Shown here in pieces: positions 11,901 to 44,505 of a stretch of DNA of 64,000 nucleotides. The notes beneath the pieces were generated by a model, which searched no databases, had not been told where the DNA came from, and saw only the letters and a program-made list of their open reading frames with translations. Where the stretch lies: positions 23,425 through 87,424 of the forward strand of contig JAISIL010000054.1 in NCBI GenBank assembly GCA_031262035.1, in the 5' to 3' direction. The stretch comes from Spirochaetaceae bacterium (lineage in GTDB: Bacteria; Spirochaetota; Spirochaetia; Treponematales; Breznakiellaceae). How positions within the stretch are numbered: position 1 is the stretch's first letter; each line of letters opens with the position of its first letter. Made by a program: the position numbers and the translations under genes.

Positions 11901-14366
11901 ATGAAAGTTATTGGATTACTTCTTAAAATACTCATTCCGCTTTATTGCGCTACTCTATTGGGCTGCCTTAATCCATTGACTGCTCCTGAGGTGAATAATG
12001 GGGTGGAGATTGTTATAGGCTACAATCCTGAGGATACAGTGGCCCCCTCCAGGGCAAGAACCATTACCCCTATTGGCTTTCAGGATGAACTTGATTATCT
12101 TATACGCTTTCAGGATACGACCCAGGATAGTAACGGGGTAAGAGATACTCAATATTTTGTGATAAGTAACAATTCTACCACAGGAACAGGAAACACTAGG
12201 CGCCGTGTTTTGCTTGAAACGGGGAACTATTATATAGATGTTGTCGGTTTTGTCGGGGGAACAATTAGCGGAAGCAGTCCGACACTGACAGAAGCACTAT
12301 TTGATGACTGGGATGCAGACAGTGAACCAGGCTTTGTGTTTGGTGCAGATGGAGGCGCACCTGTTATCCCTACTTTATGGCAAGTGGCCGGTATTTATGA
12401 TAAAATTGTTGCCACCGGGCAGACTATAAATGGAAACTTTCCTAATCAGGTAAATGTTCCCAGGGGTGATATTATACAGATACCGGTTCCACTAAAAGGT
12501 TTTACTGATAGGACAATTAATTCGGCAGTTGGCACACTGAGTTACCATTTTGTTATGCCGAATGATATGACCGGTAAAGATACCGCAGGAGGGGATGAAA
12601 ATACCTACGATGAAGCCTGGGTAGAAATGGCCCCCACGGCAATGATTAATTCTGACGGCACAGTCAATTACTACAATGCAGATGGTTCGGATACAACGAG
12701 TTATAATACTATCGAGGACCTTGAAGACCTTTCTATATGGGCTGGTACTAATTCTTCACTGATGAGTACAGACATACTTTACATTATACCAAGGGCTGCT
12801 ACCAGTGCCGCTACGACAGGATATACCTGGGTTGGCCCCAACACAGCAGAAGCTGATTTTGTGCAGACCTATTGGTATAATAACTTTTTTAACCCTGCAG
12901 CCACTCCGGTAACAACGCCGACAAATCCAACAGGCAGCGCTAGCTATGCTCCCGGCTTTTATACGGTTACTGCAACTGTCATAAAAAGATTGGATGCACA
13001 GGATGTCAGGGAGGCAACAAAAACAGATGTCCTGCACCTCTACCAGGGGGCAACTACCTATTTGGATTGGAGCTTTTTGAATGATTCGCTTTCCAATGCA
13101 CCGGGAGGAACGGTAACGGTAAACTATGAAGATACCGGCGACCGGCTTTTTACCACCGACCTTGTTACCTTATATAAGGATTGGGATGATGATAATGACG
13201 GGGCTTATACCTCGGATTATGATTGGGAATCGCGACAAAAAACGGTAACAATTAGCTGGAATACAGGTGAATGGAATGCCTTTAACAATTTCAGGGTAGA
13301 GATTGACGGTGAAACATGGCGAACCGGTGCAGGTTTTGCCTCAATGCCGGTGAATGCAGGCGGAACGATTGCAACACTTGCCGCATCGGTCGGCTTTAAA
13401 CTGGATGTTGCAGACTTTCAACTGGGGAACCATGCTTTTACCCTAAAGGCCACAGAAAGGGAAACAGGGGCTGAATGGTCAAAGCGTATTACTGTTCGTT
13501 CCGAACATGGGCCCGGCCTTTGGAAGGGCGACAGGCTGGTAAAAATTCTAAATACTTCGGCAACTACCACTGCCGCTGCACCATACCCCGATGCCATTCC
13601 GGCGACTTTTATAGAAAACGCTCTTACCCATATTCAATATGCAGGGGCTCCTTCGGGGACCAATTGGTATATAAACTTTACCGGTGAGCAAACGCTCATT
13701 GATGATTTGAACCTGACTGTAAACCAAAATATTACTCTTTCAGGTATAGCGGCTACAACAAATAATGCCTACAGCACTGCCTGGCCGAATGTAACGAGCA
13801 CAGGAACTTTATTTGCAACATTGGGTGCTAATCATACCCTTGTTCTTACCGGACAGATGTATGTAAAGGGAACTGACAATGAGAGCAGAATGATTACTGT
13901 TGGTAATGCGACTGCCAATCTGGTGCTTTCAGGTAATACACGCTTGCAGGGGCAAACAGGCGGGGCATTAAGTATAACGGCAGGAAAGGTAGTCCTGAAT
14001 GACCTGGCTACTATTATTGATAATACAGTAACAGGATCAACAGACGGCGGAGGTATAAGTCTTACCGGTGCCGGTTCTTTAACGATGAATGGTGGAATAA
14101 TAGCAGGTAATACTTCGAATGATTATGGCGGCGGTATATATATTGCAGCAAATGCTTCTATCCGCTTTGCAAAGAACGGGGGCATTATCTATGGTATAGA
14201 TGACCTTACAAATGCTAATACCGGAACAACAGAGGGCGCTGCATTGAACTTTAATAGTGCCACTACAGGAAATTATAGAAACCGGAATAAGACAATTGGA
14301 ACAGGGGATAAACTGCTGTATACCGGCGGTGTATGGACATTGTGGAACAATGACCCGCCGGATTAA
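11901..14366 (+). CDS. Paralogous surface-lipoprotein family member P1 (beta-helix-like C-terminus)
   Basis: Lipobox ATLLGC. Shares the N-terminal module, the GPGLW hinge and the Gly/Asn-rich repeat C-terminus ending WNNDPPD with P2, P3 and P5. An alternative start lies at 11874. Confidence 0.8.
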   Translation: MKVIGLLLKILIPLYCATLLGCLNPLTAPEVNNGVEIVIGYNPEDTVAPSRARTITPIGFQDELDYLIRFQDTTQDSNGVRDTQYFVISNNSTTGTGNTRRRVLLETGNYYIDVVGFVGGTISGSSPTLTEALFDDWDADSEPGFVFGADGGAPVIPTLWQVAGIYDKIVATGQTINGNFPNQVNVPRGDIIQIPVPLKGFTDRTINSAVGTLSYHFVMPNDMTGKDTAGGDENTYDEAWVEMAPTAMINSDGTVNYYNADGSDTTSYNTIEDLEDLSIWAGTNSSLMSTDILYIIPRAATSAATTGYTWVGPNTAEADFVQTYWYNNFFNPAATPVTTPTNPTGSASYAPGFYTVTATVIKRLDAQDVREATKTDVLHLYQGATTYLDWSFLNDSLSNAPGGTVTVNYEDTGDRLFTTDLVTLYKDWDDDNDGAYTSDYDWESRQKTVTISWNTGEWNAFNNFRVEIDGETWRTGAGFASMPVNAGGTIATLAASVGFKLDVADFQLGNHAFTLKATERETGAEWSKRITVRSEHGPGLWKGDRLVKILNTSATTTAAAPYPDAIPATFIENALTHIQYAGAPSGTNWYINFTGEQTLIDDLNLTVNQNITLSGIAATTNNAYSTAWPNVTSTGTLFATLGANHTLVLTGQMYVKGTDNESRMITVGNATANLVLSGNTRLQGQTGGALSITAGKVVLNDLATIIDNTVTGSTDGGGISLTGAGSLTMNGGIIAGNTSNDYGGGIYIAANASIRFAKNGGIIYGIDDLTNANTGTTEGAALNFNSATTGNYRNRNKTIGTGDKLLYTGGVWTLWNNDPPD

Positions 14367-14391
14367 GGAAGAAGGGAGAGAGATAAAAAAG

Positions 14392-16830
14392 ATGAAGAAA
14401 AAACATCTTTCTGATTTATGTATTAAAATAAGCATTTTTCTCTTTTGTTCACTGGTCGTAAGCTGTCTTAACCCGCTTGAAGCGCCTGATGTAGAAAATA
14501 ATGTAGAGATAATTATAGGCTATAATCCCGATGACACGGTAGACCCTGCCGCGGCAAGAACTGTTACCCCAATAGGCTTTCAGAATGGGCTGGATTACCT
14601 GATTCGTTTTCAGGAACAAGATACTAATCCTACGGTAAATCATTATTTTACTATTTCTCAAGGTTCTATAAGCCGGCGTATTGTTATCGACCCGGGACAA
14701 TACCATATAGATGTCGTGGGCTTTGTAGGGGGAACTATTAGCGGCGCGACTCCAAAACTGGGGGAAACAGTAGGCAGCCCTACATCGGTAGTTGCAGCAT
14801 TCGATGCCTGGACTGCACAAAGCCAGTCCGACGGGGTGTTCGTCGTAGACGGGCCAAATGAAATACCGTGGCAAGTAGCCGATGTTTGGGATAAGATTGT
14901 TGCCACCGGGCAGACGATAAATGGAAACACCCCCAATCAGGTAGATATACCAAGGGGTGATATTCTAAAGATACCGGTTCCCCTTATTGGCTTTACCGAT
15001 AAGGTAGCTGCCACCTCACTGGGAAGTTTAAATTATAACTTGATGCTGCCTGGTCAAATGACCGGTAAAGACAGCAATGGCGGCGATGATAATACCTACG
15101 ACCAAGCCTGGCTTGAATGGACGTCCACTGAAGTAATTGCGAGTACTGGTGAAACAAATATCTACAATGCAGATAGTTCGGATGCAAGTTATACCGGAAT
15201 AGATGATGTAGATGAACTGGCAGCATGGGCGGACGACGGGCATGAGGGTAGTGTTTCTGCCGATGCGCTATACCTTATAACATCGGGCCTTCTCGGTTAC
15301 CGTTGGGTTGGGCCCACTTATACGGCTGCAGATTTTGTTGTGGCATACAAGAAAATAGATTTCTTTCCGCCTAATGCTACCCCGGTAACAAATCCTGATA
15401 CTTCGGATACCGATGCTGCGGTGGTTCCCGGTTTTTATACGGTGAAGGCAGGTGTTATTAAAAGAATAGACGACGAGGATGTCCGGCGTGCAACTATCAC
15501 CGATACAATGCACATCTACCAGGGGGCAACTACCTATCTGGACTGGACCATTACCGATGACATGCTGGCAAATAACCCCGGCGGTGTAGTAAATATCAAT
15601 TACAATGATGCAGGCGACGACCTCTTCGAAACCGATTTGGTAACCCTGTATAAAAGCTGGGACGATGAAAATAATACCTACGACTGGACATCGCCGCAAC
15701 AGCAGGTAACTCTTTTATGGAATAAAACTGCATGGACAAGCCATGGTTTCGGGAACTTTAAAATAGAAATTGACGGTGAAAGGTGGAATAACAGCGGTAT
15801 TACTCCAGCATTTGCCTCAGGGCTTGTGGAAGGCGGTTCGGCCTCGTCAATAGTCTCATCAACAGGCTTTATTTTCAGGGTGAGCGATTTCCAGGTAGGA
15901 GACCATACTTTTACCTTAAGTGCAGAGGACAATGCAAGTCCTCCTGTTACCTGGACAAAGACCATCACTATTCGTTCCGAAAGAGGCCCCGGTTTATGGC
16001 AGGGGAATCGTCTGGTGAAAACACTGACTACGGACAGCGGAACAGCCCCCGCACCGGCGCCGGGAAGCATTAATGAATACTTTTTAACAAATGCTCTTTA
16101 TCATATTAATAATACTACGGCGCCCAATGATACAAATTGGTATATTAACTTTACCGATGCACAGGCAGTAACTGCAGCTTTAACCCTTAAGGCAAACCAG
16201 AATATTACTATTTCCGGTATTGCCGCTACTACTGACAATGTCTATCAGAGTTCCTGGCCTTATATACAACTTGTTACCCCATTGGCTACATTGGCTACAG
16301 TAGGGGCGAGTCAAAGGCTTACCCTGACAGGGCAAATGAGTATTCGGGGAAATATAGCAAGTAGTTCCAGAATGATTACAGTGAATAATGCAAGCGGCAT
16401 CCTTGTTCTTGGGGGGAATGTACGGCTTATGAACCAAGGAGCCGGAGCGCTCAGTCTATCCGCAGGTAGTGTGTATATGAACGACCTTGCAACAATTACC
16501 GGCAATAGTTCTAGCCAAGGGGCAGGTGTTTATATTACCGATGGTTCATTTACCATGAATGGCGGAATAATAGCAGGTAATGTGGCAAGCACTTATGGCG
16601 GCGGCATCTATATTGGGCCAAATACCGACCGCTTTGCCAAGAATGGCGGTATCATTTATGGCAGTGATGATCCGACGAACTATAATACTGCAGCAACTGA
16701 TGGCGCTGCACTGAATTACAATGCAGCAGTAGCAGGGGCGAGAAACAGAAATAAAACAATAGGAACAGGCGACAAACTACTGTTAGTGGCTGGAACCTGG
16801 ACCTTGTGGAACAATGATCCGCCGGATTAA
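14392..16830 (+). CDS. Paralogous lipoprotein P2
   Basis: MKKKHLSDL..., lipobox LVVSC. Collinear with P1 throughout and ends WNNDPPD. The track ORF start at 14257 overlaps P1 and is rejected. Confidence 0.8.
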   Translation: MKKKHLSDLCIKISIFLFCSLVVSCLNPLEAPDVENNVEIIIGYNPDDTVDPAAARTVTPIGFQNGLDYLIRFQEQDTNPTVNHYFTISQGSISRRIVIDPGQYHIDVVGFVGGTISGATPKLGETVGSPTSVVAAFDAWTAQSQSDGVFVVDGPNEIPWQVADVWDKIVATGQTINGNTPNQVDIPRGDILKIPVPLIGFTDKVAATSLGSLNYNLMLPGQMTGKDSNGGDDNTYDQAWLEWTSTEVIASTGETNIYNADSSDASYTGIDDVDELAAWADDGHEGSVSADALYLITSGLLGYRWVGPTYTAADFVVAYKKIDFFPPNATPVTNPDTSDTDAAVVPGFYTVKAGVIKRIDDEDVRRATITDTMHIYQGATTYLDWTITDDMLANNPGGVVNINYNDAGDDLFETDLVTLYKSWDDENNTYDWTSPQQQVTLLWNKTAWTSHGFGNFKIEIDGERWNNSGITPAFASGLVEGGSASSIVSSTGFIFRVSDFQVGDHTFTLSAEDNASPPVTWTKTITIRSERGPGLWQGNRLVKTLTTDSGTAPAPAPGSINEYFLTNALYHINNTTAPNDTNWYINFTDAQAVTAALTLKANQNITISGIAATTDNVYQSSWPYIQLVTPLATLATVGASQRLTLTGQMSIRGNIASSSRMITVNNASGILVLGGNVRLMNQGAGALSLSAGSVYMNDLATITGNSSSQGAGVYITDGSFTMNGGIIAGNVASTYGGGIYIGPNTDRFAKNGGIIYGSDDPTNYNTAATDGAALNYNAAVAGARNRNKTIGTGDKLLLVAGTWTLWNNDPPD

Positions 16831-16875
16831 TGTTCCACAGGGAATATATTAGATAGAGAGGTGGTTAAATTGAAA

Positions 16876-19380
16876 ATGACTCGTGGACACAGATTTTTAC
16901 TTTCCGGAGCGCTTACGCTCCTTGTGTGCTCAACAATTATGAGCTGCTGGACAGGCCTTGAAGCGCCTGATGTTGGAAATGGGGTAGAAGTAATTATTGG
17001 CTATAACCCCGATGATACTGTTGCACTTTCTGCTTCCAGAACAGTAACCCCTATAGGCTTTCAGGATGATTTAGACTACCTGATTCGTTTTCAGAACGGA
17101 GATGATTCCTCAGAAAATCATTATTTTACTATTTCTCAAGGTTCTATAAGACGGCGTGTGGTTCTTGATCCCGGTAATTATAAGATAGATGTAGTGGGCT
17201 TTGTCGGAGGAACTATTAGCGGTGGGTCAGCAATTCTTACCGGTGATACCACCGGGACAGCAGCCGCTGAATTTTCGGACTGGGTTACGCCAAGCTCATC
17301 TGAAGGGGTTTTTACCCAGGACTCTGCGCGGCCGATTCCGGCTGATTGGATTACCGGCCAAGTAAATGAGGCAATAGTTGTAGTAGGGCAAACAATAAGT
17401 TCTGCCGGAACCTATACCAATGAAGTGGTTATTCCCCGTGGTGATATTATTCGAATTACTGTCCCCCTGGTAGGCTATATATATGGTGAAAATGGCACTT
17501 TAGATTATAAGATTACCTTGCCCGGAGATATGACCGGTAAGAATACAGCCGGCGGGGATGAAAACACCTATGATGAAGCCTGGCTTGAATGGACAGCCAA
17601 TGAAATGATTGATGCGTCCAATGGCGAAACAAATATTTACAATGCAAATGGTTTGGATGCAAGTTATACCGGAATAACTGCTCTAGCCGATCTGGTAACA
17701 TGGGCGGACGGGCATCAGAGTAGTGTTTCTAGCGATGCGCTATATCTTATAACATCGGGCCTTCTTGGTTACCGTTGGGATGGTGCCGGCTATACGGCTA
17801 CAGATTTTGTTCCGGCATACAAGAAAGTAAATTTCCTGGCGCCTGCCAATCCGCCTGCTACAGGCACTTCTCCCAGTTCGCCGCTTGCTGCTGAAGAAGA
17901 CCTGGCTCCCGGTTTCTACACTGTTTCAGCGACTGTTATAAAACGAATAAGTGAAGAAGATGCAAAAAAAGCGATACGCTCGGATACTCTGCATATTTAT
18001 CAGGCAACTACCACCTACCTTGACTGGGTATTTACCGATGATATGCTTGCCAATGCGCCCGGCGGTATCGTCACTGTTCAGTATAATGATGCAGGCGATG
18101 ATCTCTTTGATACCGATCTGGTAACTCTCTATAAAGATTGGGATGATGAAAACGATGCTTATGATTGGACATCGCCACTAGAAACAGTATCTATAGACTG
18201 GAATGACGCCGGTTGGGAAAAACACGGATTTGATAGTTATAACTTAAGAATAGAAATCGATGGTGAAAACTATAGTAATGCCAATCCTCCCTTTGAATCA
18301 AAACTTGTTGGTGGGACAACTATTTCTGCTTCAACAGGTTTTACCTTTGATGTTCGCGACTTTCAGGTGGGAAACCATACCTTTACTTTAATTGCAAAAA
18401 ATAACAATTCGCCAAACATTGTATGGAGTAAGACAATTACTGTCCGCTCGGAAAGAGGTCCCGGCCTGTGGCAGGAAAATAAATTGATAAAAAAATATTA
18501 TACCAGTTCTTCTCTTCAAACGAACCCTGCACCGACACCGACAGAAATTGCGTCAAACTCAAGCTTTATTAAAGACGCTCTTGTGCACATCAGATACGCC
18601 GGCGCTACTGCGAATACAAATTGGTATATTAACTTTAGCGGAAACCAGACAATAAATGAACCATTAACAAACTCAAGTGGTTTTGCTGTAAATCAGAATA
18701 TCACACTCTCCGGTATTGCAGCAACTGAGAACAATGTGTATGTGGCAAGCTGGCCTGCAATTATCTTAGATGGTGCTGCGTCCTCATTGGCCAGCCTCGG
18801 CAATGGACAGCATCTTACCATTACCGGACAGACAGATATACGTGGAAATACTAATACTACAAGGATGCTAACAGTAGGTAATGCGAATGCATCATTGGTA
18901 CTTGGAGGCAATGTCAGAATCAGCGGGCATTCAGGCGGCGCTCTGTCTGTGACTGCTGGAACTCTTGTTATGAATGATCTGGTAAACATTACTGGAAATA
19001 CTGCAAGCACAAGAGGCGTCGGCGTAAGTGTTTCAGGCGGTTCCTTTACCATGAATGGTGGAATTATATCAAATAATAATGCTACTGCAACTGGCGTTAG
19101 CGGTGGTGGTGGTGGTGTATATGTAGGAGCAACGGCCACTCGCTTTGCCAAAAATGGCGGCATTATTTATGGCGAGGAAGCAGATGAAGCACTATCAAAT
19201 AAAATACAATACGATGCCATCGGAGCTGCATTAAACTATAATAATTCTTCTGCTACACGATACCGAAATAAAACAATTGGCTACGGCGATAAACTGCTGT
19301 ATATCGGCGGCTCTCCTACTGCTGATGACGGTTGGACTTCGACGGGAGGCGGCCTTTGGAACCTGGATCCGGCTGATTAA
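16876..19380 (+). CDS. Paralogous lipoprotein P3
   Basis: MTRGHRFLL..., lipobox TIMSC. Collinear with P1 and P2 and ends WNLDPAD. Confidence 0.8.
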   Translation: MTRGHRFLLSGALTLLVCSTIMSCWTGLEAPDVGNGVEVIIGYNPDDTVALSASRTVTPIGFQDDLDYLIRFQNGDDSSENHYFTISQGSIRRRVVLDPGNYKIDVVGFVGGTISGGSAILTGDTTGTAAAEFSDWVTPSSSEGVFTQDSARPIPADWITGQVNEAIVVVGQTISSAGTYTNEVVIPRGDIIRITVPLVGYIYGENGTLDYKITLPGDMTGKNTAGGDENTYDEAWLEWTANEMIDASNGETNIYNANGLDASYTGITALADLVTWADGHQSSVSSDALYLITSGLLGYRWDGAGYTATDFVPAYKKVNFLAPANPPATGTSPSSPLAAEEDLAPGFYTVSATVIKRISEEDAKKAIRSDTLHIYQATTTYLDWVFTDDMLANAPGGIVTVQYNDAGDDLFDTDLVTLYKDWDDENDAYDWTSPLETVSIDWNDAGWEKHGFDSYNLRIEIDGENYSNANPPFESKLVGGTTISASTGFTFDVRDFQVGNHTFTLIAKNNNSPNIVWSKTITVRSERGPGLWQENKLIKKYYTSSSLQTNPAPTPTEIASNSSFIKDALVHIRYAGATANTNWYINFSGNQTINEPLTNSSGFAVNQNITLSGIAATENNVYVASWPAIILDGAASSLASLGNGQHLTITGQTDIRGNTNTTRMLTVGNANASLVLGGNVRISGHSGGALSVTAGTLVMNDLVNITGNTASTRGVGVSVSGGSFTMNGGIISNNNATATGVSGGGGGVYVGATATRFAKNGGIIYGEEADEALSNKIQYDAIGAALNYNNSSATRYRNKTIGYGDKLLYIGGSPTADDGWTSTGGGLWNLDPAD

Positions 19381-19391
19381 AGGGAAAAAGT

Positions 19392-22268
19392 ATGGGAGGG
19401 GCTGTTTCTAAGTATCTTAAAACCCGAATTGCAGCAGCGGCGCTAGTCGCCCTGCTGCTGGGCGGGTGTAAAGCGCTCGTGGCCCCTATGGTTGAAGAGC
19501 CTGGCGAAGCAAGCAATGGAGATATTAGCCTTTTTACCGGCATAGAAGTGCGGGTAAGCTCGGCCGCTACGGTGAGCGCTCAAACTTCAGAAACTGCACA
19601 AAACAGCCGAACCATTGTGCCCAGCGGTTTTGAAAACAAGCTTGAATACCTTTTACGAATAACTTATTCCGATGGCAGCATGGTGTATGAGACCATGGAA
19701 GCCGGTGTTACATCAAGACGCTTTCTGCTGGAATCCGGTGCTTATTCTATGCAGCTCCTCGGTTTTACCGAAGGCCATCTTCCCCTTGAAGCCGATTGGT
19801 CCGACTGGACTGAAAATATAGCAAGCCTTTTAGGCGGCCCCTGGGCGGCAGGCGGAAAGGGCCATGCCCAATATGTAGCGGCTACCGGCACTGCACAGAA
19901 TGCACAGGGGCAGACCACCTTTAATATAAGCAAGGGTGATATACTGGAAGTAACTGTTCCCCTTAGTACCTACTTTAGCGTAAATGGCACAGGAACACTG
20001 CTTTACAATATAGAATTACCTAGCAGCATGGTCAATGGGCAGGATACTGCAACTGTGGTTTCTACAAACAATGTAGTAATTAATATTAATCTCCTGGCCT
20101 CAGGATTTAGCGCCGCAACAAATCTATCCTCGGGGAGCGCTACTGTTGATGCAGGGATGTATAACATACAGGTAAGCATTATCCGCGACCCGGGAACAGT
20201 AAACGAACGATACGCCGGCTACACAAATACGGTGCATATAGTTAGTGGTATGACTTCTTACCTGGGCCTCAGCTTTAAAGATTGGGTCCTGCTGGATAAG
20301 GCAGACCCCGGCCAGGTAACAGGCCTTACAGCAGTGGTGAGTAATGGAGTAAATGTAACACTCAGTTGGACGCCTCCCTCTGCTTTTGACTATGCAGGTT
20401 CTATCATTACCTTTACCCCTACAGTACCTGGTATTAGCCAGCCGATTTTTGTGCCAAAGACCGGGGCGGCAACAGAAAGCTATGCTTTCAATGGGCTTGA
20501 AGCGGGGATCACTTATACCTTTTCTGTTGTCGCTATTGATAATATGGATGATTCAGGCCGTTATAGGCCAATTGCCGATACGCCGGTAACGGCAAGCATT
20601 ACTACACGTCTGATTATTGATGTAGGGGCTTTAACAGAACCGGCTGCCCGAATTCAGTTTGGCAGTTCGGAAACTATGCCGGTAGATTTAGTTAATATGA
20701 GCAGTCATGATATATATATGGCAAAGGTAAACCAGAGCGGGTCTAATGCTTCCGGTACTGCATCAGGCGGCTATTCTGCCAATCAAGTAGGCTTACAGCC
20801 ATCACAAAGCATGCGAAGCATAAATCCCTTGTCTGAAAGCCCTGCTTCTGAGACTGCTCCGGAGCCTTACCCGCTTACTCTGCCAGACGGGCAGACGCTT
20901 ATGATGACGCCAAAAACACTTGTAGAACGGCATGACTTTCATGACTATGTAGAGCCCTATTATGGTGATAAGTCTCGTGCCGCCCTTCCACGGGTTGCAT
21001 ATAGTGTCGGCCAATCCAGAAACTTCTGGGTGCGGCGTAATATAGACGCCTCTGCAGGTTCACAAGCATGGGAATCGAAACCTGCTACCTTGCGAGCAAC
21101 TGGAACCTACTGTGATGTCTGGGTTATGAATAGTGAATATCCTCCTGGTTGGTGGCAGTATTATGGCTATAATGGTTATATTAACACAGAGGATGCTGAA
21201 GATTTACGGGATAATTTTGACGCCCTCTATCCTCATGTAACAAATCTCTTGGGTTATGAAAGGGGAGGGGGCCCGAGCGGAAACGGTGGTGTAGACGAAA
21301 ACAAAAAGGTGCAGATTCTCGTTTATGAATTTAACTATGATTGGGAGGCTGGTGATTTTTTGGGTGCCTCTTCGGTTACTATGGGTTATTATTGGTCAAA
21401 AGATGAAGGAAATGGCGCCAATAGTAACCATTGCGAGATGTTCTACATTGATTCCTGGTGTTTTGATTTTATGGATTTTATAGAAGTTGCCAGTCTAGGT
21501 ATTACTAGTCTTAATATGTATTTAACATTGGCTCATGAATTTCAGCACATGATTAACAATGCCCATGGCGGTTCTGAAAGCGCCCTAAACGAAATGATGT
21601 CCATGATGACAGAAGATTTTGTCGGCCCCTATATAGGCTTTGATTGGGATGACAGTGGTATGCCCATTGAATCGAGAATGCCCGGAGCACTTAATAATTA
21701 TTATGCAAGAAGTGTTACTAATTGGACGAATAATGATATGACTTCGTATTCAAATGCCTTTGCTTTTGGCGCCTATCTGGCGCGAAATTATGGCGGTGCA
21801 GAATTCTTAAGTTCACTTTCTTCATCGAGCAACAGATCGTATCAGGGGATGATTAACTATGCAATGCAAACGAGAAACCCCTCTTTGCCGGTGGACACCG
21901 GGGTGACTAATCCCTATTTCCGTTATGCGCTTGCCCGTTATCCGCAGGCCTGGGTGTTTTCGAGTAGCTCGTATAGTTTGCCGGGAACTTCCTCTGCAAC
22001 TACCGCTCGTGCATTTGATTATACGGTAAATAAAACTGTTGGCGGTGAATCCTATGAAGCGCATGGTTTTGATGTATACGAACAATTTGACCCTCTTATA
22101 GGCGATAATGACCCAACAATACTTTTTTTAACTGATAACAGAACGGTGTATAGCTATGGTATTACCGTTCATACGGATAGTTCCTGGCAGAACAAAAGCG
22201 GTAATATGACAGTAGAATTAAAGAAGCCGACAAATACCAATGTGGAAATATGGCTTTTATTCAGGTAG
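19392..22268 (+). CDS. Paralogous lipoprotein P4: family N-terminal module + FN3-like domain + HExxH metallopeptidase domain (peptidase M30/hyicolysin-like)
   Basis: Lipobox LLGGC. The N-terminal block aligns with P1-P3 (SRTIVPSGFENKLEYLLR, KGDILEVTVPL). FN3-like segment: VTGLTAVVSNGVNVTLSWTPP...YTFSVVAID. LAHEFQHMINN lies at 21534-21548 (HEFQH). Confidence 0.7.
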   Translation: MGGAVSKYLKTRIAAAALVALLLGGCKALVAPMVEEPGEASNGDISLFTGIEVRVSSAATVSAQTSETAQNSRTIVPSGFENKLEYLLRITYSDGSMVYETMEAGVTSRRFLLESGAYSMQLLGFTEGHLPLEADWSDWTENIASLLGGPWAAGGKGHAQYVAATGTAQNAQGQTTFNISKGDILEVTVPLSTYFSVNGTGTLLYNIELPSSMVNGQDTATVVSTNNVVININLLASGFSAATNLSSGSATVDAGMYNIQVSIIRDPGTVNERYAGYTNTVHIVSGMTSYLGLSFKDWVLLDKADPGQVTGLTAVVSNGVNVTLSWTPPSAFDYAGSIITFTPTVPGISQPIFVPKTGAATESYAFNGLEAGITYTFSVVAIDNMDDSGRYRPIADTPVTASITTRLIIDVGALTEPAARIQFGSSETMPVDLVNMSSHDIYMAKVNQSGSNASGTASGGYSANQVGLQPSQSMRSINPLSESPASETAPEPYPLTLPDGQTLMMTPKTLVERHDFHDYVEPYYGDKSRAALPRVAYSVGQSRNFWVRRNIDASAGSQAWESKPATLRATGTYCDVWVMNSEYPPGWWQYYGYNGYINTEDAEDLRDNFDALYPHVTNLLGYERGGGPSGNGGVDENKKVQILVYEFNYDWEAGDFLGASSVTMGYYWSKDEGNGANSNHCEMFYIDSWCFDFMDFIEVASLGITSLNMYLTLAHEFQHMINNAHGGSESALNEMMSMMTEDFVGPYIGFDWDDSGMPIESRMPGALNNYYARSVTNWTNNDMTSYSNAFAFGAYLARNYGGAEFLSSLSSSSNRSYQGMINYAMQTRNPSLPVDTGVTNPYFRYALARYPQAWVFSSSSYSLPGTSSATTARAFDYTVNKTVGGESYEAHGFDVYEQFDPLIGDNDPTILFLTDNRTVYSYGITVHTDSSWQNKSGNMTVELKKPTNTNVEIWLLFR

Positions 22269-22313
22269 AAATTTATTTATACGCAAAATAGGCAAACATG
22301 CCGATAATGAAAT

Positions 22314-24329
22314 GTGAAGAAATATTTATTATGGATAGTATTAGTAGCATTTCTCATTTTTATTGTTTTTAGTATATACGGCTGTCTTGACCCCGTTAGA
22401 GCTCCTGCAATAAACGGCATGGACATTAGTGTATTTGATACAGCACGAATCATTGCCCCCCAGGGTTATCAAACTACTCTGGATTATCTTGTCCGGGCAA
22501 GTAATCCCGATGGTGAGTATGAGAATGTCTATACACTCATTTCTGCAGGTAATAGTACTGCAAGGCTTCTTGTCAATTCCGGCTTCTGGCGTGTTGATGT
22601 TATTGGTTTTAAAGTCGGCATGGCTCCCAAGGAAGAAGACTGGTATTTTTGGGATAGCCAGTCAAGTGATTTTTCTGCTATTCCGGTATCCAGTTCCTGG
22701 AAAAACGAATATATTGTGGTGGTAGGCCGCGGACAGGATTCCGCAGAGTCGGACGATATATTTGTTCCTGTAGATTCAATTATTCCCGTGCATGTGGGTT
22801 TTACTGGTTATACCTATGGGCTAAACTATGGCAGCCTTGGCTATACTGTTCACCTGCCCGATTTAAACGTCGCTAATGGCGACAGTGCAACCCTCTCTAT
22901 TAAGAGGCAGGAAGAAACGGCTTATACTGATTACGACCTTTTAGTCACTGCAAACAATGATACTGATACCTTTAGAAACACCTACGATATTGACAATGCA
23001 ACAGCAACAGGAAGAATCTCAAACCTTCATGCAGGCTTCTATGATGTTCAGGTATATGTAGTAAAAAACGTGCTGCCCAGTGGTGATATTCGCTATGTTA
23101 AAAAAACTGATATAGCACATATTTACCAGAATGTTCCAAGCGATTTTGAATGGATCTTTGCCCTCTCCGAAATGACTTCATATCCGGGCGGCGAACTGAG
23201 TGTTTCGTATGTAGACCCTGCCGCAGACCTTATTACAGAAGACGTTCTGGTATTGTATAAAGACAATAGCAATCGGCCCCTGGAGGCAGGCCTGACAGGC
23301 GAACTCCACCTGCGCAAGGACTGGAAAGATGATTTTACCTACATGCAAATTAGAGTAGATGATGACGATACAGACGACAGTTTTTTTATCGATTTTCGTT
23401 TTGATCCGGTGGCAGGAACAATACACTTAAATAGTATTGATTTTAAGTTGGGCAGCTCTTATCTGACTATCTATATAGTAGATTCCAATGGCATCCCCTG
23501 GACGGATACCTGTCTTATTCAGACGGTAAATGGGCCCGGTCTTTTTCGCAATTATTCAATTAATCGTATTGAAAGTCTTAATGCAACAAGTCCCGACTTT
23601 TTTAAACAGGCAATGGCCTACATTGATACCCATGGAGTCGAAGGCGACTATTGGTATATAACCTTGCTTAATAGCGAAACGGTGGATACCACCTACCTTT
23701 TAGGCGGAAAACCCCTTGTTCTTTCGATTGCAGGCTATAGCAATACGCCCGACCGTGGTGGTGGGCCTGTTATTACTCTTTCGCAAACCGGCGCTTCATT
23801 GTTTACCCTCGACCCGGATAATGCAAGAACCCTGTCTCTTACCCTTGGCGGTTGCCTTAAATTGGAAGGCCTTGATGCAAACGCTTTCCCCTTAATTAAT
23901 GTTCTGGATAGCAGCAGCCTTACTCTCTCCGGCAAACTGGAGCTTATTAACAATGGCGGCACGGGTATTTCGGTAGAAGATAATGGCCGTGTCAATATGA
24001 TAGGCGATGTTTCTATACATGGCAGCTTTGCCTTAAACGGCGCCGGTGTGTATATTGGGCCAAACGGAAACTTTATTATGGAAAAAGGGCGTATCGGCCG
24101 TAACCGTGCGGCTAATTCAGGCGGCGGGGTATTCCTTGCTACAGATGCCGGTTCTTTCGCCAAAACAGGCGGTATTATTTACGGTAGCGATGATGACAGT
24201 AATCTAAATGAAGCTCCAAAAGGTGCGGCCTTCTATTCCGATCCGGATAGAGCAAGAAACAGAACAATAACAACACAGGAACCATTAAAATTCCTTAACG
24301 GTGAATGGCAAATCTGGTCGGCTGATTAA
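22314..24329 (+). CDS. Paralogous lipoprotein P5 (divergent, shorter)
   Basis: GTG start, lipobox SIYGC. Retains TLDYLVR, GPGLF and the C-terminal FAKTGGIIYGSDD...RNRTI...IWSAD blocks. Confidence 0.7.
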   Translation: MKKYLLWIVLVAFLIFIVFSIYGCLDPVRAPAINGMDISVFDTARIIAPQGYQTTLDYLVRASNPDGEYENVYTLISAGNSTARLLVNSGFWRVDVIGFKVGMAPKEEDWYFWDSQSSDFSAIPVSSSWKNEYIVVVGRGQDSAESDDIFVPVDSIIPVHVGFTGYTYGLNYGSLGYTVHLPDLNVANGDSATLSIKRQEETAYTDYDLLVTANNDTDTFRNTYDIDNATATGRISNLHAGFYDVQVYVVKNVLPSGDIRYVKKTDIAHIYQNVPSDFEWIFALSEMTSYPGGELSVSYVDPAADLITEDVLVLYKDNSNRPLEAGLTGELHLRKDWKDDFTYMQIRVDDDDTDDSFFIDFRFDPVAGTIHLNSIDFKLGSSYLTIYIVDSNGIPWTDTCLIQTVNGPGLFRNYSINRIESLNATSPDFFKQAMAYIDTHGVEGDYWYITLLNSETVDTTYLLGGKPLVLSIAGYSNTPDRGGGPVITLSQTGASLFTLDPDNARTLSLTLGGCLKLEGLDANAFPLINVLDSSSLTLSGKLELINNGGTGISVEDNGRVNMIGDVSIHGSFALNGAGVYIGPNGNFIMEKGRIGRNRAANSGGGVFLATDAGSFAKTGGIIYGSDDDSNLNEAPKGAAFYSDPDRARNRTITTQEPLKFLNGEWQIWSAD

Positions 24330-24361
24330 ATCGCTCTACACACTATCTATACACTAGAACA

Positions 24362-25468
24362 TTAGAACTTCCACCCCAATTGTGCGCTGGGCATTATGCT
24401 GAACATTCTAAAGCCATCATCAAAGGCAACGATAGCGTCTGCACCCAGGCTGATACTAAAGTGCTCTGCAATAAGGAAGCGCAGTTCAAGGCCGATGTTT
24501 GCAGAAAGACCAAAGGTGCTCTGCGTTGTATGATCGCCGATAACAAAGCCGATAACCGGGGTTAATCCACCGCCGAGCTGTATATCAAACTCCAGCCAAT
24601 TAAGGCGGGGCAATTGGTATACGGCATACAAATTGGCTGCAAGGTGTGTTCCGCTGGTTTCGGGGTAGAGAATGCCATACTTACCCTCTGCGGTTACCGT
24701 AAAGGGATTATATATCATTTGAAGCTTAAAACCAACACCGCCCCAGTCCCCGGACCAGGGAATGGCCATGCCGCTGAGCATATAGCCCTGCGTAAGGAAA
24801 CTATCGTGCAGCATATCTGCATAGTATCCTGTGATGGGCGCAAGAGGCGCATAGCCTGCGGCAATATACCATTTACCATAATCTTTTTCTTCAGTCACCT
24901 CCTCATTTGTTTCTTCTGTGGTTTCGGCTTCAGTTTCCTCCTCCGGCGCAGCTTCTTCAGCGGTCTGTGCCTGAGCTTTTTCTTCTTCGTTAATAGGTAT
25001 TTGGGATACTATGTATTGAAGAAGGCCGGGGAGAAATTCTGTAGCCTCATCTAATGTTGCATACAGCATTTCATCTGTTATGATGAGTTTGTCGTCTGTC
25101 ATATCATAAAGCCAGAGCTGCATATGCGTTTCACCGGCTGCTAAATCCTGATAAAATGCTGTTGTTATTACATAGGAGGCATTCCGGGCAAGACTTGCCG
25201 AAGGGGGAATACCGGGGTCAGGGAGTGTGCGGGATACTAAATTCCAATTGTAGTCTTCAATGGTAGAAATTGCATTGACCAATGCCGGAGATATTGCAGA
25301 AGCATCCTGGGTAGTATCAGTAAACAGGGTAATTGCATTATTGGCCGTGCTTGCCTCAGGCTGACTTGTCCCTGCATCTTGCTGAACTTCCGCATCTTGT
25401 GCAAAGGCAAAGCCTAAAAAGAAAGAGAAAAATAGTATAATAGTTAAGCAGAGCCGCTTAATATACAT
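24362..25468 (-). CDS. Putative outer-membrane beta-barrel protein with an acidic linker
   Basis: Signal peptide (...GFAFA-QD), an E/T-rich linker (AEEAAPEEETEAETTEETNEEVTEE), and a C-terminal stretch of about 170 aa with alternating hydrophobicity ending GWKF (terminal Phe). Confidence 0.55.
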   Translation of the reverse strand: MYIKRLCLTIILFFSFFLGFAFAQDAEVQQDAGTSQPEASTANNAITLFTDTTQDASAISPALVNAISTIEDYNWNLVSRTLPDPGIPPSASLARNASYVITTAFYQDLAAGETHMQLWLYDMTDDKLIITDEMLYATLDEATEFLPGLLQYIVSQIPINEEEKAQAQTAEEAAPEEETEAETTEETNEEVTEEKDYGKWYIAAGYAPLAPITGYYADMLHDSFLTQGYMLSGMAIPWSGDWGGVGFKLQMIYNPFTVTAEGKYGILYPETSGTHLAANLYAVYQLPRLNWLEFDIQLGGGLTPVIGFVIGDHTTQSTFGLSANIGLELRFLIAEHFSISLGADAIVAFDDGFRMFSIMPSAQLGWKF

Positions 25469-26814: not shown

Positions 26815-26896
26815 ACTATAAAGTTAAATGATTTTGCCCTGTACGGGGCTCCAGACGGCCTTGAAGAAAACTGTTTTTTCTGATATACTGAAAAAC

Positions 26897-28471
26897 ATGA
26901 GATACTTTAATACCACCGGCCTTTGTGTGCCGAACATGCATTACATGGTCGACATTAGCGGTAAACTCGCCCAAATTAAGGCAATGATAGATAAGGAGCA
27001 GTATTTTACCATCAATCGCGGCCGCCAATACGGTAAAACGACCACCCTGAACGCTCTGGCTGACACTCTTGGGCCGGAATATATTGCTCTCTGGATTAGT
27101 TTGGAAGGGATGACCAATGACACTTTTGAGGACGAATCAAAGTTTGTTTGTATATTTTTAGATAGAATAGAAAAAGCTCTGTGCTTTTCTTCTGTGGCCA
27201 ATGATAAAGACTACATTAAAAGCTGGATAGACCCATCGGTTACAGATATGAACAGCCTAAGCGACCATATTACCAATATGTGCGAAGGTCGTAAAATTGT
27301 GCTGATGATAGACGAGTCTGATAAGTTTAGTAACTATAGACTTTTTATTTCATTCCTCGGTATACTTCGTGATAAATTCCTCCGGCGAACTGCAGGTAAG
27401 GATTATACCTTTCACAGTGTTATTCTGGCCGGTGTGTATGATATAAAGAACATAAAAAACAGAATGATTACCCAGGGAAAGTATACACCCCATGAAGGTG
27501 AAAGCACTGTCTATAATTCACCCTGGAATATAGCAGTCAATTTTAATGTTGATATGTCCTTCAGTGCTCCTGAAATTGCCACTATGCTGAATGAGTATGA
27601 AGGCGACCACCAGAGCGGTATGGACATAAAGGCAATATCCGAAGAACTCCGTGCCTGGACATCGGGCTATCCCTTCCTTGTTTCCCGTTTATGCCAAATT
27701 ATTGACGGTGACTTGGATAAGGATTGGACAATTGCCGGTGTTAAAGATGCAGTCCGGCTTTTAGTGCGGGAGATGAACACTTTATTTGATGATATGGGTA
27801 AAAACATGGAGATGTTTCCTGCCCTGTATCAATTCACCTACGATTTGCTCATTCTTGGTGAAGAGAAAAGGGAATCTTTTCTTGACCCTGTTGTCGGCAG
27901 AGGATTTATGTTCGGATATTTCAGGTCTGATAATGGAAAGGTATTAATAGCCAATCAGATATTTGCAAAGGTGCTGACCGATTATTTTCTTTCCAAAGAT
28001 GATACGACACAAAAGAACAATGTAGAAATTACCGGTGTATTTAAAACAGATGTGGTAAAAGATGGACACTTTGATATGGAGTTAACCTTACATAAATTTG
28101 CACAGCATTACAATGAAATTTTTACCAGAAAAGATAGTGATTTCTGGGAAAAACACGCACGATTAGTGTTTCTGACATACCTGAAACCCCTTATCAACGG
28201 CGAAGGCTTTTATCATCTGGAAAGCCAGTTTACCGACCTTCGCCGTATGGATATTGTAGTTGATTATGGCAAAGACCAGTTTATCATTGAACTAAAGATG
28301 TGGCATGGCGATGCATACGAAGAAAAAGCATACCAACAATTAACCGATTACCTGCAAAGCAAGCACACAAATACCGGCTACCTCCTTACTTTCGATATGC
28401 GGAAAGACAAGCAAGCAAGGGAAGGCTGGATAGAAAAAAACGGCTGCCTTATTTTCGAAGTGGTGCTGTAA
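26897..28471 (+). CDS. Orphan AAA-ATPase-like protein with C-terminal PD-(D/E)xK nuclease-like domain
   Basis: N-terminus MRYFNTTGLCVPNMHYMVD...RGRQYGKTT. C-terminus ...RRMDIVVDYGKDQFIIELKMW (D...ELK). Resembles the AAA-ATPase_like/PDDEXK_9 architecture. Confidence 0.65.
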   Translation: MRYFNTTGLCVPNMHYMVDISGKLAQIKAMIDKEQYFTINRGRQYGKTTTLNALADTLGPEYIALWISLEGMTNDTFEDESKFVCIFLDRIEKALCFSSVANDKDYIKSWIDPSVTDMNSLSDHITNMCEGRKIVLMIDESDKFSNYRLFISFLGILRDKFLRRTAGKDYTFHSVILAGVYDIKNIKNRMITQGKYTPHEGESTVYNSPWNIAVNFNVDMSFSAPEIATMLNEYEGDHQSGMDIKAISEELRAWTSGYPFLVSRLCQIIDGDLDKDWTIAGVKDAVRLLVREMNTLFDDMGKNMEMFPALYQFTYDLLILGEEKRESFLDPVVGRGFMFGYFRSDNGKVLIANQIFAKVLTDYFLSKDDTTQKNNVEITGVFKTDVVKDGHFDMELTLHKFAQHYNEIFTRKDSDFWEKHARLVFLTYLKPLINGEGFYHLESQFTDLRRMDIVVDYGKDQFIIELKMWHGDAYEEKAYQQLTDYLQSKHTNTGYLLTFDMRKDKQAREGWIEKNGCLIFEVVL

Positions 28472-44462: not shown

Positions 44463-44505
44463 AAAACTATTGACCAAATATTTATCCTCTATTATAATAT
44501 CCTAT

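Follow-up and report, generated by a model that had tools for sequence, protein, structure and literature searches.

Organisation of the locus

The region described here (positions 11901–24329 of the window, by which we mean the whole 64,000-nt stretch of DNA that was analysed) carries five genes, P1 to P5, recognised from the open reading frame list and its translations and all lying co-directionally on the + strand (Table 1). The original prediction placed the genes 11–45 bp apart, and the intergenic gaps of 25, 30, 11 and 45 nt (in order from P1 to P5) agree with it; gaps this short suggest co-transcription of all five genes. We picture the locus as a lineage-specific tandem expansion, probably forming a single operon downstream of radA. 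Upstream of the array lie genes for a GH3 enzyme and for a glycogen phosphorylase. Close orthologs of the locus were not found in genome or metagenome collections. The P1 protein has an identical entry in a public collection (P0001), and P2 is P0002 of the MAG Spirochaetaceae bacterium LBM77_03680. The database version of P3 (P0003) is 813 aa long and, judged by this length, would start only at Met27, within the lipobox, and lack the signal peptide. All five predicted signal peptides with their lipobox strings were located, and the lipobox Cys is invariant across a 19-sequence family alignment.

Table 1. Features of the five-gene array (window coordinates).
Feature	Coordinates	Strand	Description	Basis
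P1	11901–14366	+	821-aa lipoprotein, ATG start; signal and lipobox, N-module, third beta-sandwich, hinge, beta-helix module	ORF and translation; structure model made
P2	14392–16830	+	812 aa, ATG start; architecture as P1	ORF and translation
P3	16861–19380	+	839 aa, GTG start, alternatively ATG at 16876; paralog	
P4	19392–22268	+	958-aa lipoprotein; N-module, then FN3 and HExxH metalloprotease head	
P5	22314–24329	+	671 aa, GTG start; diverged paralog, compact form of the P1–P3 architecture	
Lipobox, P1	11955–11966	+	LLGC	Pattern position
Lipobox, P2	14455–14466	+	VVSC	
Lipobox, P3	16936–16947	+	IMSC	
Lipobox, P4	19458–19469	+	LGGC	
Lipobox, P5	22374–22385	+	IYGC	
N-module, P1	11967–13115	+	aa 23–405; two beta-sandwich domains with lineage-specific inserts	Alignments to Treponema-type lipoproteins, HMM matches, P5 model
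N-module, P2	about 14467–15606	+		
N-module, P3	about 16948–18105	+		
N-module, P4	about 19470–20327	+		
N-module, P5	about 22386–23228	+		
R-T-[IV]-x-P, P1	12057–12071	+	31 aa past the lipid-attachment Cys	
R-T-[IV]-x-P, P2	14557–14571	+		
R-T-[IV]-x-P, P3	17038–17052	+		
R-T-[IV]-x-P, P4	19608–19622	+		
R-T-[IV]-x-P, P5	22446–22460	+		
RGD, P1	12462–12470	+		Motif position
RGD, P2	14953–14961	+		Motif position
RGD, P3	17437–17445	+		Motif position
KGD, P4	19932–19940	+		Motif position
Conversion tract, P2 arm	15082–15360	+	P2/P3 gene conversion	Nucleotide identity, pS
Conversion tract, P3 arm	about 17554–17832	+	P2/P3 gene conversion	Nucleotide identity, pS
Third (Ig-like) beta-sandwich, P1	13116–13508	+	Common to P1, P2, P3 and P5	Alignment
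Hinge, P1	13509–13523	+	GPGLW	Motif position
Hinge, P2	15985–15999	+		
Hinge, P3	18457–18471	+		
Hinge, P5	23532–23546	+	GPGLF	
C-module, P1	13599–14363	+	Beta-helix module; N-terminal capping helix, FAKNGGIIYG...RNRNKTI cap	
C-module, P2	16060–16827	+		
C-module, P3	18580–19377	+		
C-module, P5	23559–24326	+		
FN3 domain, P4	20313–20552	+	aa 308–387	Pfam PF00041, E = 5.1e-7, 30.3 bits vs. cut-off 25
M30-like zinc metalloprotease domain, P4	21171–21941	+	aa 594–850	
HEFQH, P4	21534–21548	+	HExxH motif	

That these are paralogous lipoproteins in tandem, as had been proposed, is borne out by sequence comparison, in which the similarity goes far beyond chance. Over their full length P1, P2 and P3 share 49–56% identity (E = 0; 54% for P2 against P1); P5 is 26–29% identical to them with E-values down to 1e-39, aligning to the whole of P1 in one piece and to P2 and P3 in two segments. 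P4 resembles the other four solely over its N-terminal ~300 aa (E from about 1e-14 to 1e-18), so that a different head follows a common N-module, and in this sense the C-terminal part is indeed interchangeable. The GPGL[WF] hinge and the motifs FAK[NT]GGIIYG and R.RN.TI lie where the first reading of the sequence had put them; the W..W..DP(P/A)D tail holds for P1–P3 and fails for P5, which ends WQIWSAD. The least conserved part had been taken to be the central ~250 aa, but it consists instead of two lineage-specific inserts inside the N-module, at about P1 aa 133–181 and 280–376.

Modules of the encoded proteins

The N-module is common to all five proteins, with diverged versions in P4 and P5 as predicted, and it is monophyletic within the array: the five window copies are mutual best matches (E 1e-10 to 1e-19, with outsiders at 1e-6 or worse), and an insert after domain 1 is common to all five and occurs in no outside sequence compared. 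The AlphaFold2 model of P5 (mean pLDDT 75.5) places its two domains at residues 35–165 and 172–281, with pLDDT mostly 65–88. In alignments to Treponema-type lipoproteins the Cys, RTIxP, GxYxIxVxAY, GTGTFxW, GxYxV and HIYxxxTS all align. The Arg and Pro of the RTIxP motif are invariant in a 16-sequence alignment (A2); the 19-sequence alignment (A6) keeps the Pro throughout, with Arg or Lys at the Arg position in 18 of its 19 sequences. Of the 147 best matches from outside the window, 28 contain the module. A Treponema primitia ZAS-2 lipoprotein (WP_015707090.1, whose RefSeq name is "right-handed parallel beta-helix repeat-containing protein") carries it, and two other Treponema MAGs have it in adjacent paralogs; outside the array it is also fused to Flg_new and to PF13287/PF13290. 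Wherever the source organisms of the family were named, they were Treponema and Spirochaetaceae. The original prediction could place the module in no named family, and no curated Pfam or NCBIfam cut-off was reached (the weak Pfam matches were only to Cadherin-like, DUF4493 and SpaA prealbumin-like families).

In P1, P2, P3 and P5 the N-module is followed by the third sandwich, which shows weak profile similarity to the corresponding part of P0085 and is modelled at low confidence (pLDDT mostly 39–70; in P5, strands 341–405 at mostly 48–70), and then by the hinge and a C-module of ~250 aa. At pLDDT 80–97 (80–93 in the P1 model, 90–97 in the P5 model), AlphaFold2 builds the C-module as an all-beta coil capped by a helix, each turn holding about three short strands. 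For the P1 model Foldseek returned mostly right-handed beta-helix proteins at the top of its list, none of them significant (best E = 2.8e-3), and Pfam Beta_helix matches P5 below its cut-off (E = 0.006). Relatives pass PF13229, and in P0110 the PF13229 match overlaps the segment matched by the C-module profile. From these models, non-significant structural matches and the below-cut-off Pfam match, a right-handed parallel beta-helix with no autotransporter barrel emerges as the best reading of the C-terminus of P1–P3 and P5, and it is also the fold that had been suggested from the letters alone.

The C-module reached no curated Pfam or NCBIfam cut-off, and its distribution is wide. At E <= 1e-3 its profile matched 11,696 cluster representatives, of which 298 remained at E <= 1e-30, and the best 150 matches outside the locus all align best in the C-module. 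The taxa include Treponema, Lachnospiraceae, Oscillospiraceae, Breznakia, Chitinispirillia and Prevotellaceae, and most relatives with a named source are gut-associated. On the strength of these comparisons, the array proteins belong as diverged members to a very large, unnamed family and are neither orphans nor a new system.

The C-terminal half of P4, an FN3 domain and an HExxH metalloprotease, was absent from the original description. The FN3 region also has PDB fibronectin matches, and the protease domain is homologous to lugdulysin (7bb8, family M30; phmmer E = 7.8e-10), with the HExxH motifs aligned such that TLAHEFQHMIN of P4 pairs with TLAHEYQHMVN. P4 would then be a surface-tethered protease in which the stalk carries an FN3 domain and an M30-type (lugdulysin/hyicolysin-like) zinc metalloprotease.

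Function of the heads and of the N-module

Searches for a characterised homolog giving a function for either module, including PDB sequence searches with profiles of both, returned none. The beta-helix heads could be carbohydrate-active enzymes, either glycoside hydrolases or polysaccharide lyases with a pectate-lyase fold; the array would then equip the surface with tethered depolymerases and a protease for the use of polymers from plants or microbes as food. Among the top Foldseek hits for the P1 model are enzymes or depolymerases of that fold, the GH87 alpha-1,3-glucanase 6k0v (at the E-value given above), together with pectate lyase Pel3, phage tailspikes, GH55 and the PL6 alginate lyase; P2 has a weak NCBIfam match to rhamnogalacturonidase (E = 0.07), the relatives come largely from gut communities degrading fibre, and the upstream GH3 and glycogen phosphorylase genes would fit such a role. 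However, these structural matches have a TM of at most 0.48, no CAZy-type Pfam or NCBIfam family was matched at a useful threshold, and the family-conserved residues lie in Gly-rich turns and the C-terminal cap, with no obvious acidic catalytic cluster. The C-module is moreover repeated in giant proteins, with up to 45 matched stretches, and many-fold repetition of this kind characterises beta-helices with a structural or adhesive role and not enzymes. We consider catalysis by these heads unlikely.

A further alternative concerns the N-module, which in spirochaetes might correspond to the type V pilin fold of Bacteroidota (FimA/Mfa superfamily), with a lipoprotein precursor cleaved after the Arg of RTIxP, freed from its lipid and then assembled, or kept in place, through strand exchange, so that the beta-helix or protease would be tip-like. 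The best PDB match of the P5 model is the type V pilus protein 5cag (E = 6.4e-5, prob 1.00), followed by 4qdg (prob 0.99), 4gpv (prob 0.96) and 3r4r (prob 0.87). The literature describes the last three as type V pilus proteins with two sandwiches, and 4gpv and 3r4r have a lipidated Cys19–21 and a gingipain-cut Arg/Lys at 43–55 in the beta1-beta2 loop (PMC4789730, PMC5789003). In the array family the Cys is likewise invariant, and the A2-invariant Arg lies 21–47 aa downstream, past the first beta-strand. Against this, TM-scores are only 0.25–0.29 at an rmsd of 11–15 Å, generic tandem Ig proteins score nearly equally, no Pfam fimbrillin family was matched, large C-terminal domains follow in place of terminal donor strands, and pLDDT near the Arg is low (about 54). 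To our knowledge type V pili occur only in Bacteroidota, which also counts against a pilin, and we judge this origin of the N-module quite improbable.

Divergence within the array and proposed surface role

The original prediction saw in the array a diversifying family, perhaps for antigenic variation, in which segment exchange by gene conversion, or on/off switching, varies the exposed surface. The tandem paralogs with a variable middle are in line with this, and the proposed check for gene conversion did return one real tract, of about 280 nt between P2 and P3, where divergence from P1 peaks. Nucleotide identity in the tract is 0.72–0.91, against roughly 0.45–0.75 in flanking windows, and pS is 0.22 against 0.67 elsewhere, a value reached in 0 of 500 column shuffles. 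The divergence of P1–P3 as a whole argues the other way, as dS is saturated (1.35–2.1) with a dN/dS of 0.19–0.26, no 50-codon window is clearly above 1 (the highest dN/dS, 1.02, lies within the conversion tract), and the longest identical run in any paralog pair is 24 nt. The likely co-transcription of all five genes also speaks against such a system. Searches for homopolymer or simple-sequence tracts, invertible (including invertible-promoter) repeats and silent cassettes found none; since no switching machinery was found, antigenic variation is unsupported, and we regard it as very improbable. P1–P3 are old duplicates under purifying selection with occasional gene conversion.

RGD in P1–P3 and KGD in P4 were found as predicted, and their proposed meaning as integrin-recognition tripeptides is not supported. 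The RGD aligns around a Gly that is kept by most family members and whose position is modelled in a hairpin turn joining the last two strands of domain 1; its equivalent in P5 is VDS (153–155, between strands 149–151 and 156–165 of the model). Because RGD is missing from P5 and from every outside family member aligned, with only the Gly recurring, the motif is probably a coincidence, and a tripeptide common to three paralogs at about 55% identity is unremarkable. The repeats of Pmp proteins are beta-helix turns that mediate adhesion (PMC11166332, PMC2997323). That P1–P5 are Pmp-like or autotransporter-like adhesins engaging host integrins through RGD/KGD is hardly credible, since the likeness to Pmp, a Gly/Asn-rich beta-helix with one GGAL and several GG[AG][ILV] and FxxN motifs, stands only loosely, whereas strict GGA[ILV] occurs 0–1 times per protein, FxxN is at the level expected from shuffling, no Chlam_PMP, Pmp-middle or autotransporter-barrel Pfam family matched at a whole-protein E <= 1, every protein terminates at the beta-helix cap, and the predicted anchor is an N-terminal lipid.

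We somewhat favour the reading that the array encodes surface lipoproteins whose common stalk presents either a ligand-binding or a proteolytic head, as diverged members of a large uncharacterised modular family. P1–P5 would be exported, lipidated at the lipobox Cys and presumably displayed on the cell surface; surface localisation is not universal among spirochaetal lipoproteins. The two-sandwich N-module may act as the stalk, the five stalks descending from one local ancestor with a different head in P4. In P1, P2, P3 and P5 the stalk would lead through the third Ig-like sandwich and the GPGL[WF] hinge to a self-contained beta-helix, right-handed and parallel, with a capping helix and about ten turns, whose putative ligand would be a polymer, a glycan or the surface of another cell being the most likely candidates. 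An adhesion role for the array proteins is plausible, and the paralogs most likely hold stable, divergent specificities, not programmed variation.

Architecture and paralogy of the array

The five tandem genes are best explained as encoding lipid-anchored, probably surface-exposed modular proteins (P1 to P5), in which a common stalk of two beta-sandwiches (the N-module), followed by an Ig-like spacer and a hinge, would carry a capped beta-helix head (the C-module) in P1, P2, P3 and P5. In P4 the same stalk would instead end in FN3 and an M30-like zinc protease. The original prediction of co-directional genes with small gaps is borne out by the ORF list and translations (see the table), the intergenic distances being 25, 30, 11 and 45 nt. 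A 92-nt gap separates the array from radA upstream, and the array ends 32 nt short of a convergent gene.

Genes of the array and segments of the P5 structural model (AlphaFold2)
Feature	Position	Strand	Product or description	Basis or pLDDT
P1	11901-14366	+	821 aa	ORF list and translation
P2	14392-16830	+	812 aa	ORF list and translation
P3	16861-19380	+	839 aa, GTG start; alternative ATG at 16876	ORF list and translation
P4	19392-22268	+	958 aa	ORF list and translation
P5	22314-24329	+	671 aa	ORF list and translation
P5 model	aa 35-165, 172-281		beta-sandwich domains	pLDDT mostly 65-88
P5 model	strands 341-405		weaker third sandwich	pLDDT mostly 48-70
P5 model	aa 429-440		helix	
P5 model	aa 445-667		coil, about three short strands per turn	pLDDT 90-97

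A signal sequence and lipobox are found in each product as predicted (LLGC, VVSC, IMSC, LGGC and IYGC, at aa 19-29 by pattern position), and the lipobox Cys is invariant across the 19 aligned family members. Judged by the hydrophobic N-terminal signal and lipobox, all five would be bacterial lipoproteins and substrates of signal peptidase II. As publicly annotated, P3 (P0003) has only 813 aa, 26 fewer than the ORF read here, and judged by its length it would start at Met27 within the lipobox IMSC, so that the signal peptide is lost; with a start at GTG 16861 or ATG 16876 (the latter after GAGAGGTGG) a normal lipoprotein signal is regained (window 16861-16947).

The paralogy proposed earlier stands, with P1, P2 and P3 being 49-56% identical end to end in pairwise BLASTP. 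P5 shares 26-29% identity with these three (E down to 1e-39), aligning in one piece across all of P1 and in two segments each for P2 and P3, while the similarity of P4 to the other paralogs is confined to its first ~300 residues (E about 1e-14 to 1e-18). Among the remaining ORFs of the window none belongs to the family. The GPGL[WF] hinge, the motifs FAK[NT]GGIIYG and R.RN.TI, the RGD of P1-P3 and the KGD of P4 are all located where they had been placed. The conserved DPPD tail described for the beta-helix paralogs does not extend to P5, which lacks it, and what had been seen as a single, least-conserved central block is instead two inserts within the N-module (about P1 aa 133-181 and 280-376). 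The minus strand inside P1-P3 also holds antisense ORFs of 85-156 aa (window 12756-19163; e.g., 18693-19163 and 15268-15699), which we take to be by-products of sense-strand gene composition rather than genes.

The convergent neighbor (24362-25468, minus strand) encodes 368 aa, comprising a signal peptide, a middle part that is acidic and rich in Glu and Thr, and a C-terminal part ending in GWKF. The protein resembles an outer-membrane barrel and has no match in Pfam. A homolog occurs in Treponema sp. Gx481_bin52 (L012 6921-8138, E = 4e-9), about 5 kb from a beta-helix gene. We rejected the neighbor as a conserved partner of the array, this being the one homolog near a beta-helix gene and the analogous neighbor in another Treponema locus (L015 11493-12647) not being significantly similar (E = 0.08). 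In the 32 nt that separate the P5 stop codon from that of the convergent gene, an 11-nt unit, TCTACACACTA, is repeated twice (24335-24356) and may be part of a shared terminator. The array is followed by an EamA transporter gene and, just past it, by two ATPase genes (26828-28471 and 28490-29743), one combining an AAA-like domain with a PD-(D/E)XK nuclease domain and the other, on the minus strand, AAA_14 with DUF4143. Further along the window are two ORFs of equal length (504 aa) with TTG starts, 3.4 kb apart (44470-45984 and 47875-49389), the first of which contains a Schlafen AlbA_2 domain.

Predicted beta-helix and protease heads

A HMMER profile of the five proteins, searched in full against 1.84 billion cluster representatives, gave 11,696 matches at E <= 1e-3 and 298 at E <= 1e-30. 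Among the best 150 matches outside the locus, the best match always fell at profile positions of about 520-790, which is the C-module, and very large proteins contain many profile matches each. In the database relative P0034 the entire module recurs as a unit, from capping helix through turns to the cap TFxKxGGxIYG...R-N-x-T...GGW. The capped C-module, ending F/TxKxGGxIYG ... R-N-x-T ... W, is present in P1, P2, P3 and P5 and missing in P4, and the proteins that bear it end about 30 aa past the beta-helix cap. By genome scans, relatives occur in MAGs of Treponema and Spirochaetaceae and in Lachnospiraceae, Oscillospiraceae, Breznakia, Chitinispirillia, Eubacterium ruminantium and Prevotellaceae. 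Some profile-matched proteins pass Pfam Beta_helix, the two assignments overlapping on the same segment in the relative P0110, and others carry Listeria-Bacteroides repeats.

P1, P2, P3 and P5 themselves reach no Pfam or NCBIfam cut-off, whether searched whole or as isolated C-modules. The C-terminus of P5 matches PF13229 Beta_helix with E = 0.006 and 16.7 bits, below the cut-off of 25.9, and P1-P3 have no PF13229 or TIGR03804 match. Searches of PDB sequences, using single proteins as well as profiles of both modules, gave matches for P4 only (lugdulysin and FN3). In the AlphaFold2 model of P1 (with the five paralogs as the alignment, mean pLDDT 49.6) only the C-module is good, with a pLDDT of 80-93 over aa 570-815, and the N-terminal 560 aa are poor; the model of P5, built with 19 sequences, has a mean pLDDT of 75.5. 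For the P1 model, the top PDB matches in Foldseek include GH87, Pel3, phage tailspikes, GH55, PL6, Ag43 and IgA1 protease, all of which we take to be right-handed beta-helix proteins, and none of these matches is significant (best E = 2.8e-3). The support for a predicted parallel beta-helix in the C-module is thus indirect, combining the models (pLDDT 80-97), the top Foldseek matches of the P1 model (mostly beta-helix proteins, but E >= 2.8e-3) and transitive homology to proteins that pass PF13229. The predicted all-beta coil, capping helix, roughly three strands per turn and Gly/Asn-rich turns are features shared with the pectate-lyase-fold proteins of PF13229 and TIGR03804, although the window proteins lie under the curated cut-offs and can be assigned to no catalytic family.

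This likeness bears on what the heads may do. It is possible that they are polysaccharide-degrading enzymes, since the fold matches include enzymes of that kind; however, the family signal expected of such an enzyme is absent, and giant proteins contain the module many times over. We favor a beta-helix head that would bind a polymeric ligand.

The main thing missed in the original prediction is the C-terminal half of P4, which had been left undescribed and which holds an FN3 domain and a metalloprotease head. Residues 308-387 match FN3 (Pfam PF00041, E = 5.1e-7, 30.3 bits against a gathering score of 25), and residues 594-850 match lugdulysin, a solved metalloprotease of family M30 (PDB 7bb8, E = 7.8e-10). 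The HEFQH of P4 (aa 715-719) sits in TLAHEFQHMIN opposite TLAHEYQHMVN of lugdulysin. P4 has in common with peptidases of M30 (hyicolysin and lugdulysin) the HExxH within TLAHE[FY]QHM[IV]N and similarity over about 250 aa, and it differs in that its protease follows a lipoprotein stalk and FN3 in one chain, whereas the M30 enzymes are secreted free. No Pfam peptidase family matches P4 at E <= 1 for the whole protein or at E <= 10 for the C-terminal half, and the sole match to an NCBIfam HExxH family (MXAN_6640_HExxH, 19.3 bits) is far under its cut-off of 140.

The shared N-module, a proposed stalk, and its relatives

In the alignments the N-module runs from the lipobox Cys through a first strand, RTIxP, GxYxIxVxAY, a hairpin, GTGTFxW and GxYxV to HIYxxxTS, and the window proteins carry this motif series. 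The full-length profile search is swamped by the C-module, so the spread of the N-module can be read only from the best 150 matches. Many of these C-module matches have N-termini that make them lipoproteins laid out like the window proteins. An HMM built from 18 N-modules, the window's five among them, matches the five window proteins with E of 1e-60 to 1e-69 (all five being in its training set) and finds the N-module in 28 of the 147 best non-window matches, 15 of the 28 lying outside the building set. One of the proteins with an N-module is WP_015707090.1 of Treponema primitia ZAS-2, a cultured termite-gut spirochaete, which RefSeq names "right-handed parallel beta-helix repeat-containing protein." The module, a two-sandwich unit of roughly 250 aa, also precedes other domains (Flg_new; PF13287/PF13290) and is found in Treponema and Spirochaetaceae wherever the source organism is named.

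The N-module occurs in adjacent paralogs of other Treponema MAGs as well, namely LBQ82_02505/02510 and two tandem genes in locus L002, and proteins of this type seem generally prone to tandem duplication. Adjacent paralogs with N-modules lie at L015 8319-11386 (two) and at L002 3313-9586 (two, these with several beta-helix modules), both in Treponema MAGs; in an Oscillospiraceae MAG, four beta-helix genes lacking the N-module stand in tandem (L007 5755-16141).

The Treponema lipoproteins (WP_015707090.1 and LBQ82_02505/02510 of Treponema sp.) resemble the window proteins in several respects. Most have a lipobox Cys followed by the same two-sandwich N-module, with RTIxP, GxYxIxVxAY, GTGTFxW and HIYxxxTS in common; many have the same capped beta-helix module, ending TFxKxGGxIYG...R-N-x-T...GGW; and they are often found in tandem pairs. 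The differences are that the N-modules of the window are only about 15-30% identical to theirs, that a lineage-specific insert follows domain 1 in all five window proteins (modeled as helical in P5) and another of about 95 aa lies in domain 2 of P1-P3, that the window proteins contain one beta-helix module, not several, and that the window array includes one protease-headed member. Since lipoproteins of the same layout recur among the profile matches, the window proteins are diverged members of a large family and not orphans. This Treponema-type family is uncharacterized and unnamed, and the literature searched on lugdulysin/M30 and on Treponema beta-helix lipoproteins contains no description of it. 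LigA and LigB of Leptospira are spirochaetal surface lipoproteins too, with tandem Ig-like domains that the paralogs have in common at the N-terminus and C-terminal ends in which they differ; having Big_2 domains and no beta-helix, they serve as a working analogy to the window array, with no homology claimed.

A different origin can also be considered for the stalk. To our knowledge, the type V pilin (FimA/Mfa) fold has so far been found only in Bacteroidota. For the P5 model, Foldseek ranks type V pilus proteins of Bacteroidales highest in the PDB, namely 5cag (E = 6.4e-5, prob 1.00), 4qdg, 4gpv and 3r4r, with probabilities of 0.87-1.00 but TM scores of only 0.25-0.29, and generic tandem Ig proteins come close behind. 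The N-module could accordingly be read as a distant pilin relative whose maturation would involve a cut at the Arg of RTIxP; the cut protein would leave its lipid anchor, the stalk could then exchange strands with a partner, and the five genes would supply, as alternative tips or accessory subunits, four beta-helix binders and one protease to a surface assembly that is pilus-like or anchored. Type V pilins are indeed lipoprotein precursors cleaved at Arg/Lys 43-55 (PMC4789730, PMC5789003), and an Arg invariant in the 16-sequence N-module alignment lies 21-47 aa after the invariant Cys, at a non-strand position past the first strand (local pLDDT about 54). The Bacteroidota proteins and those of the array have in common a lipoprotein precursor, two sandwiches and a basic residue some 20-50 residues past the Cys. 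The structural match is weak, however (TM <= 0.29), the sequence signal is absent, the phylum is different, and the window proteins run on into large heads instead of ending in donor strands. The 16 N-modules match no fimbrillin family of Pfam even at E <= 5, and a BFVD fold search returned generic Ig-like matches only. The weak Pfam matches found among the N-modules (Cadherin-like, DUF4493, SpaA prealbumin-like) are in keeping with a generic prealbumin/Ig-like sandwich. We regard this pilin reading as very improbable and retain the description of the N-module as an anchored stalk.

History of the array and its meaning

The five window N-modules are mutually closest among everything retrieved, and the insert after domain 1 that they share is absent from all outside sequences; the array thus arose locally, and the head of P4 is a domain replacement. 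P1-P3 are old duplicates, with dS of 1.35-2.1 (saturated), dN/dS of 0.19-0.26 (Nei-Gojobori) and a longest identical run between paralogs of 24 nt. One segment is a gene-conversion tract, where P2 (about 15082-15360) and P3 (about 17554-17832) reach an identity of 0.72-0.91 against roughly 0.45-0.75 in the flanks. Its pS is 0.22 against 0.67 elsewhere, with none of 500 column shuffles as low, and both copies are as distant from P1 as elsewhere. No close relative of the locus was found with the P1-P3 motifs in 185,579 species genomes, or with these motifs and P4 in JGI metagenomes, and exact look-ups of P1 and P5 returned no contig on record. Word-indexed searches, a method near-blind here, gave only P2 and P3 for P1, and 12 and 9 proteins for the N-module profiles.

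These values bear on the diversifying role first suggested for the array. Antigenic variation at the locus is not supported: the selection data run against diversification, and switching machinery is missing. No simple-sequence tracts, invertible repeats or silent cassettes were found at the array, and phase variation was rejected as there are no repeats or invertible elements.

The suggestion of Pmp-like adhesins that bind integrins through RGD is likewise not supported. Chlamydial Pmps are families of surface beta-helix paralogs with Gly-rich repeats and a role as adhesins (PMC11166332, PMC10715098, PMC2997323). The window proteins are like Pmps and other type V autotransporter passengers in forming a paralogous family of predicted surface beta-helices with Gly-rich repeats, and unlike them in being N-terminally lipid-anchored, with a beta-sandwich stalk ahead of the helix. 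Strict GGA[ILV] occurs 0-1 times per protein and FxxN 1-4 times against 1.7-2.3 expected from shuffles, so that neither is enriched, and Pfam gave no match to the Pmp-middle domain or an autotransporter beta-barrel (whole proteins at E <= 1, C-modules at E <= 10); membership in Pmp was rejected on the motif counts. The RGD (P1 aa 188-190) aligns with the hairpin that joins the two final strands of domain 1, in model and alignment, and as modeled it is likely exposed in a turn. Only the Gly recurs at this position in most members of the wider family (e.g., aGk, pGd, sGa), P5 has VDS, and the tripeptide is kept in neither P5 nor any outside homolog. Because the three paralogs that have it are about 55% identical, its presence in all three is uninformative, and we read the RGD as coincidence.

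The locus alone reveals no new mechanism; the array belongs to a known but uncharacterized kind of protein, and what is new is the local combination of heads. Two widespread modules are seen here that have no curated family model, the N-module and the capped beta-helix module, the latter a self-contained unit that over 11,000 cluster representatives contain, those of Treponema as well as of other bacteria, the named ones being mostly gut-associated. Defining both as families would better annotate thousands of "hypothetical" proteins, and T. primitia ZAS-2, being in culture, offers through its homolog a starting point for experiments. Since what is probably one operon pairs the same stalk with four beta-helices and one M30-like protease, the array offers a compact natural example of how spirochaete surface proteins are constructed.
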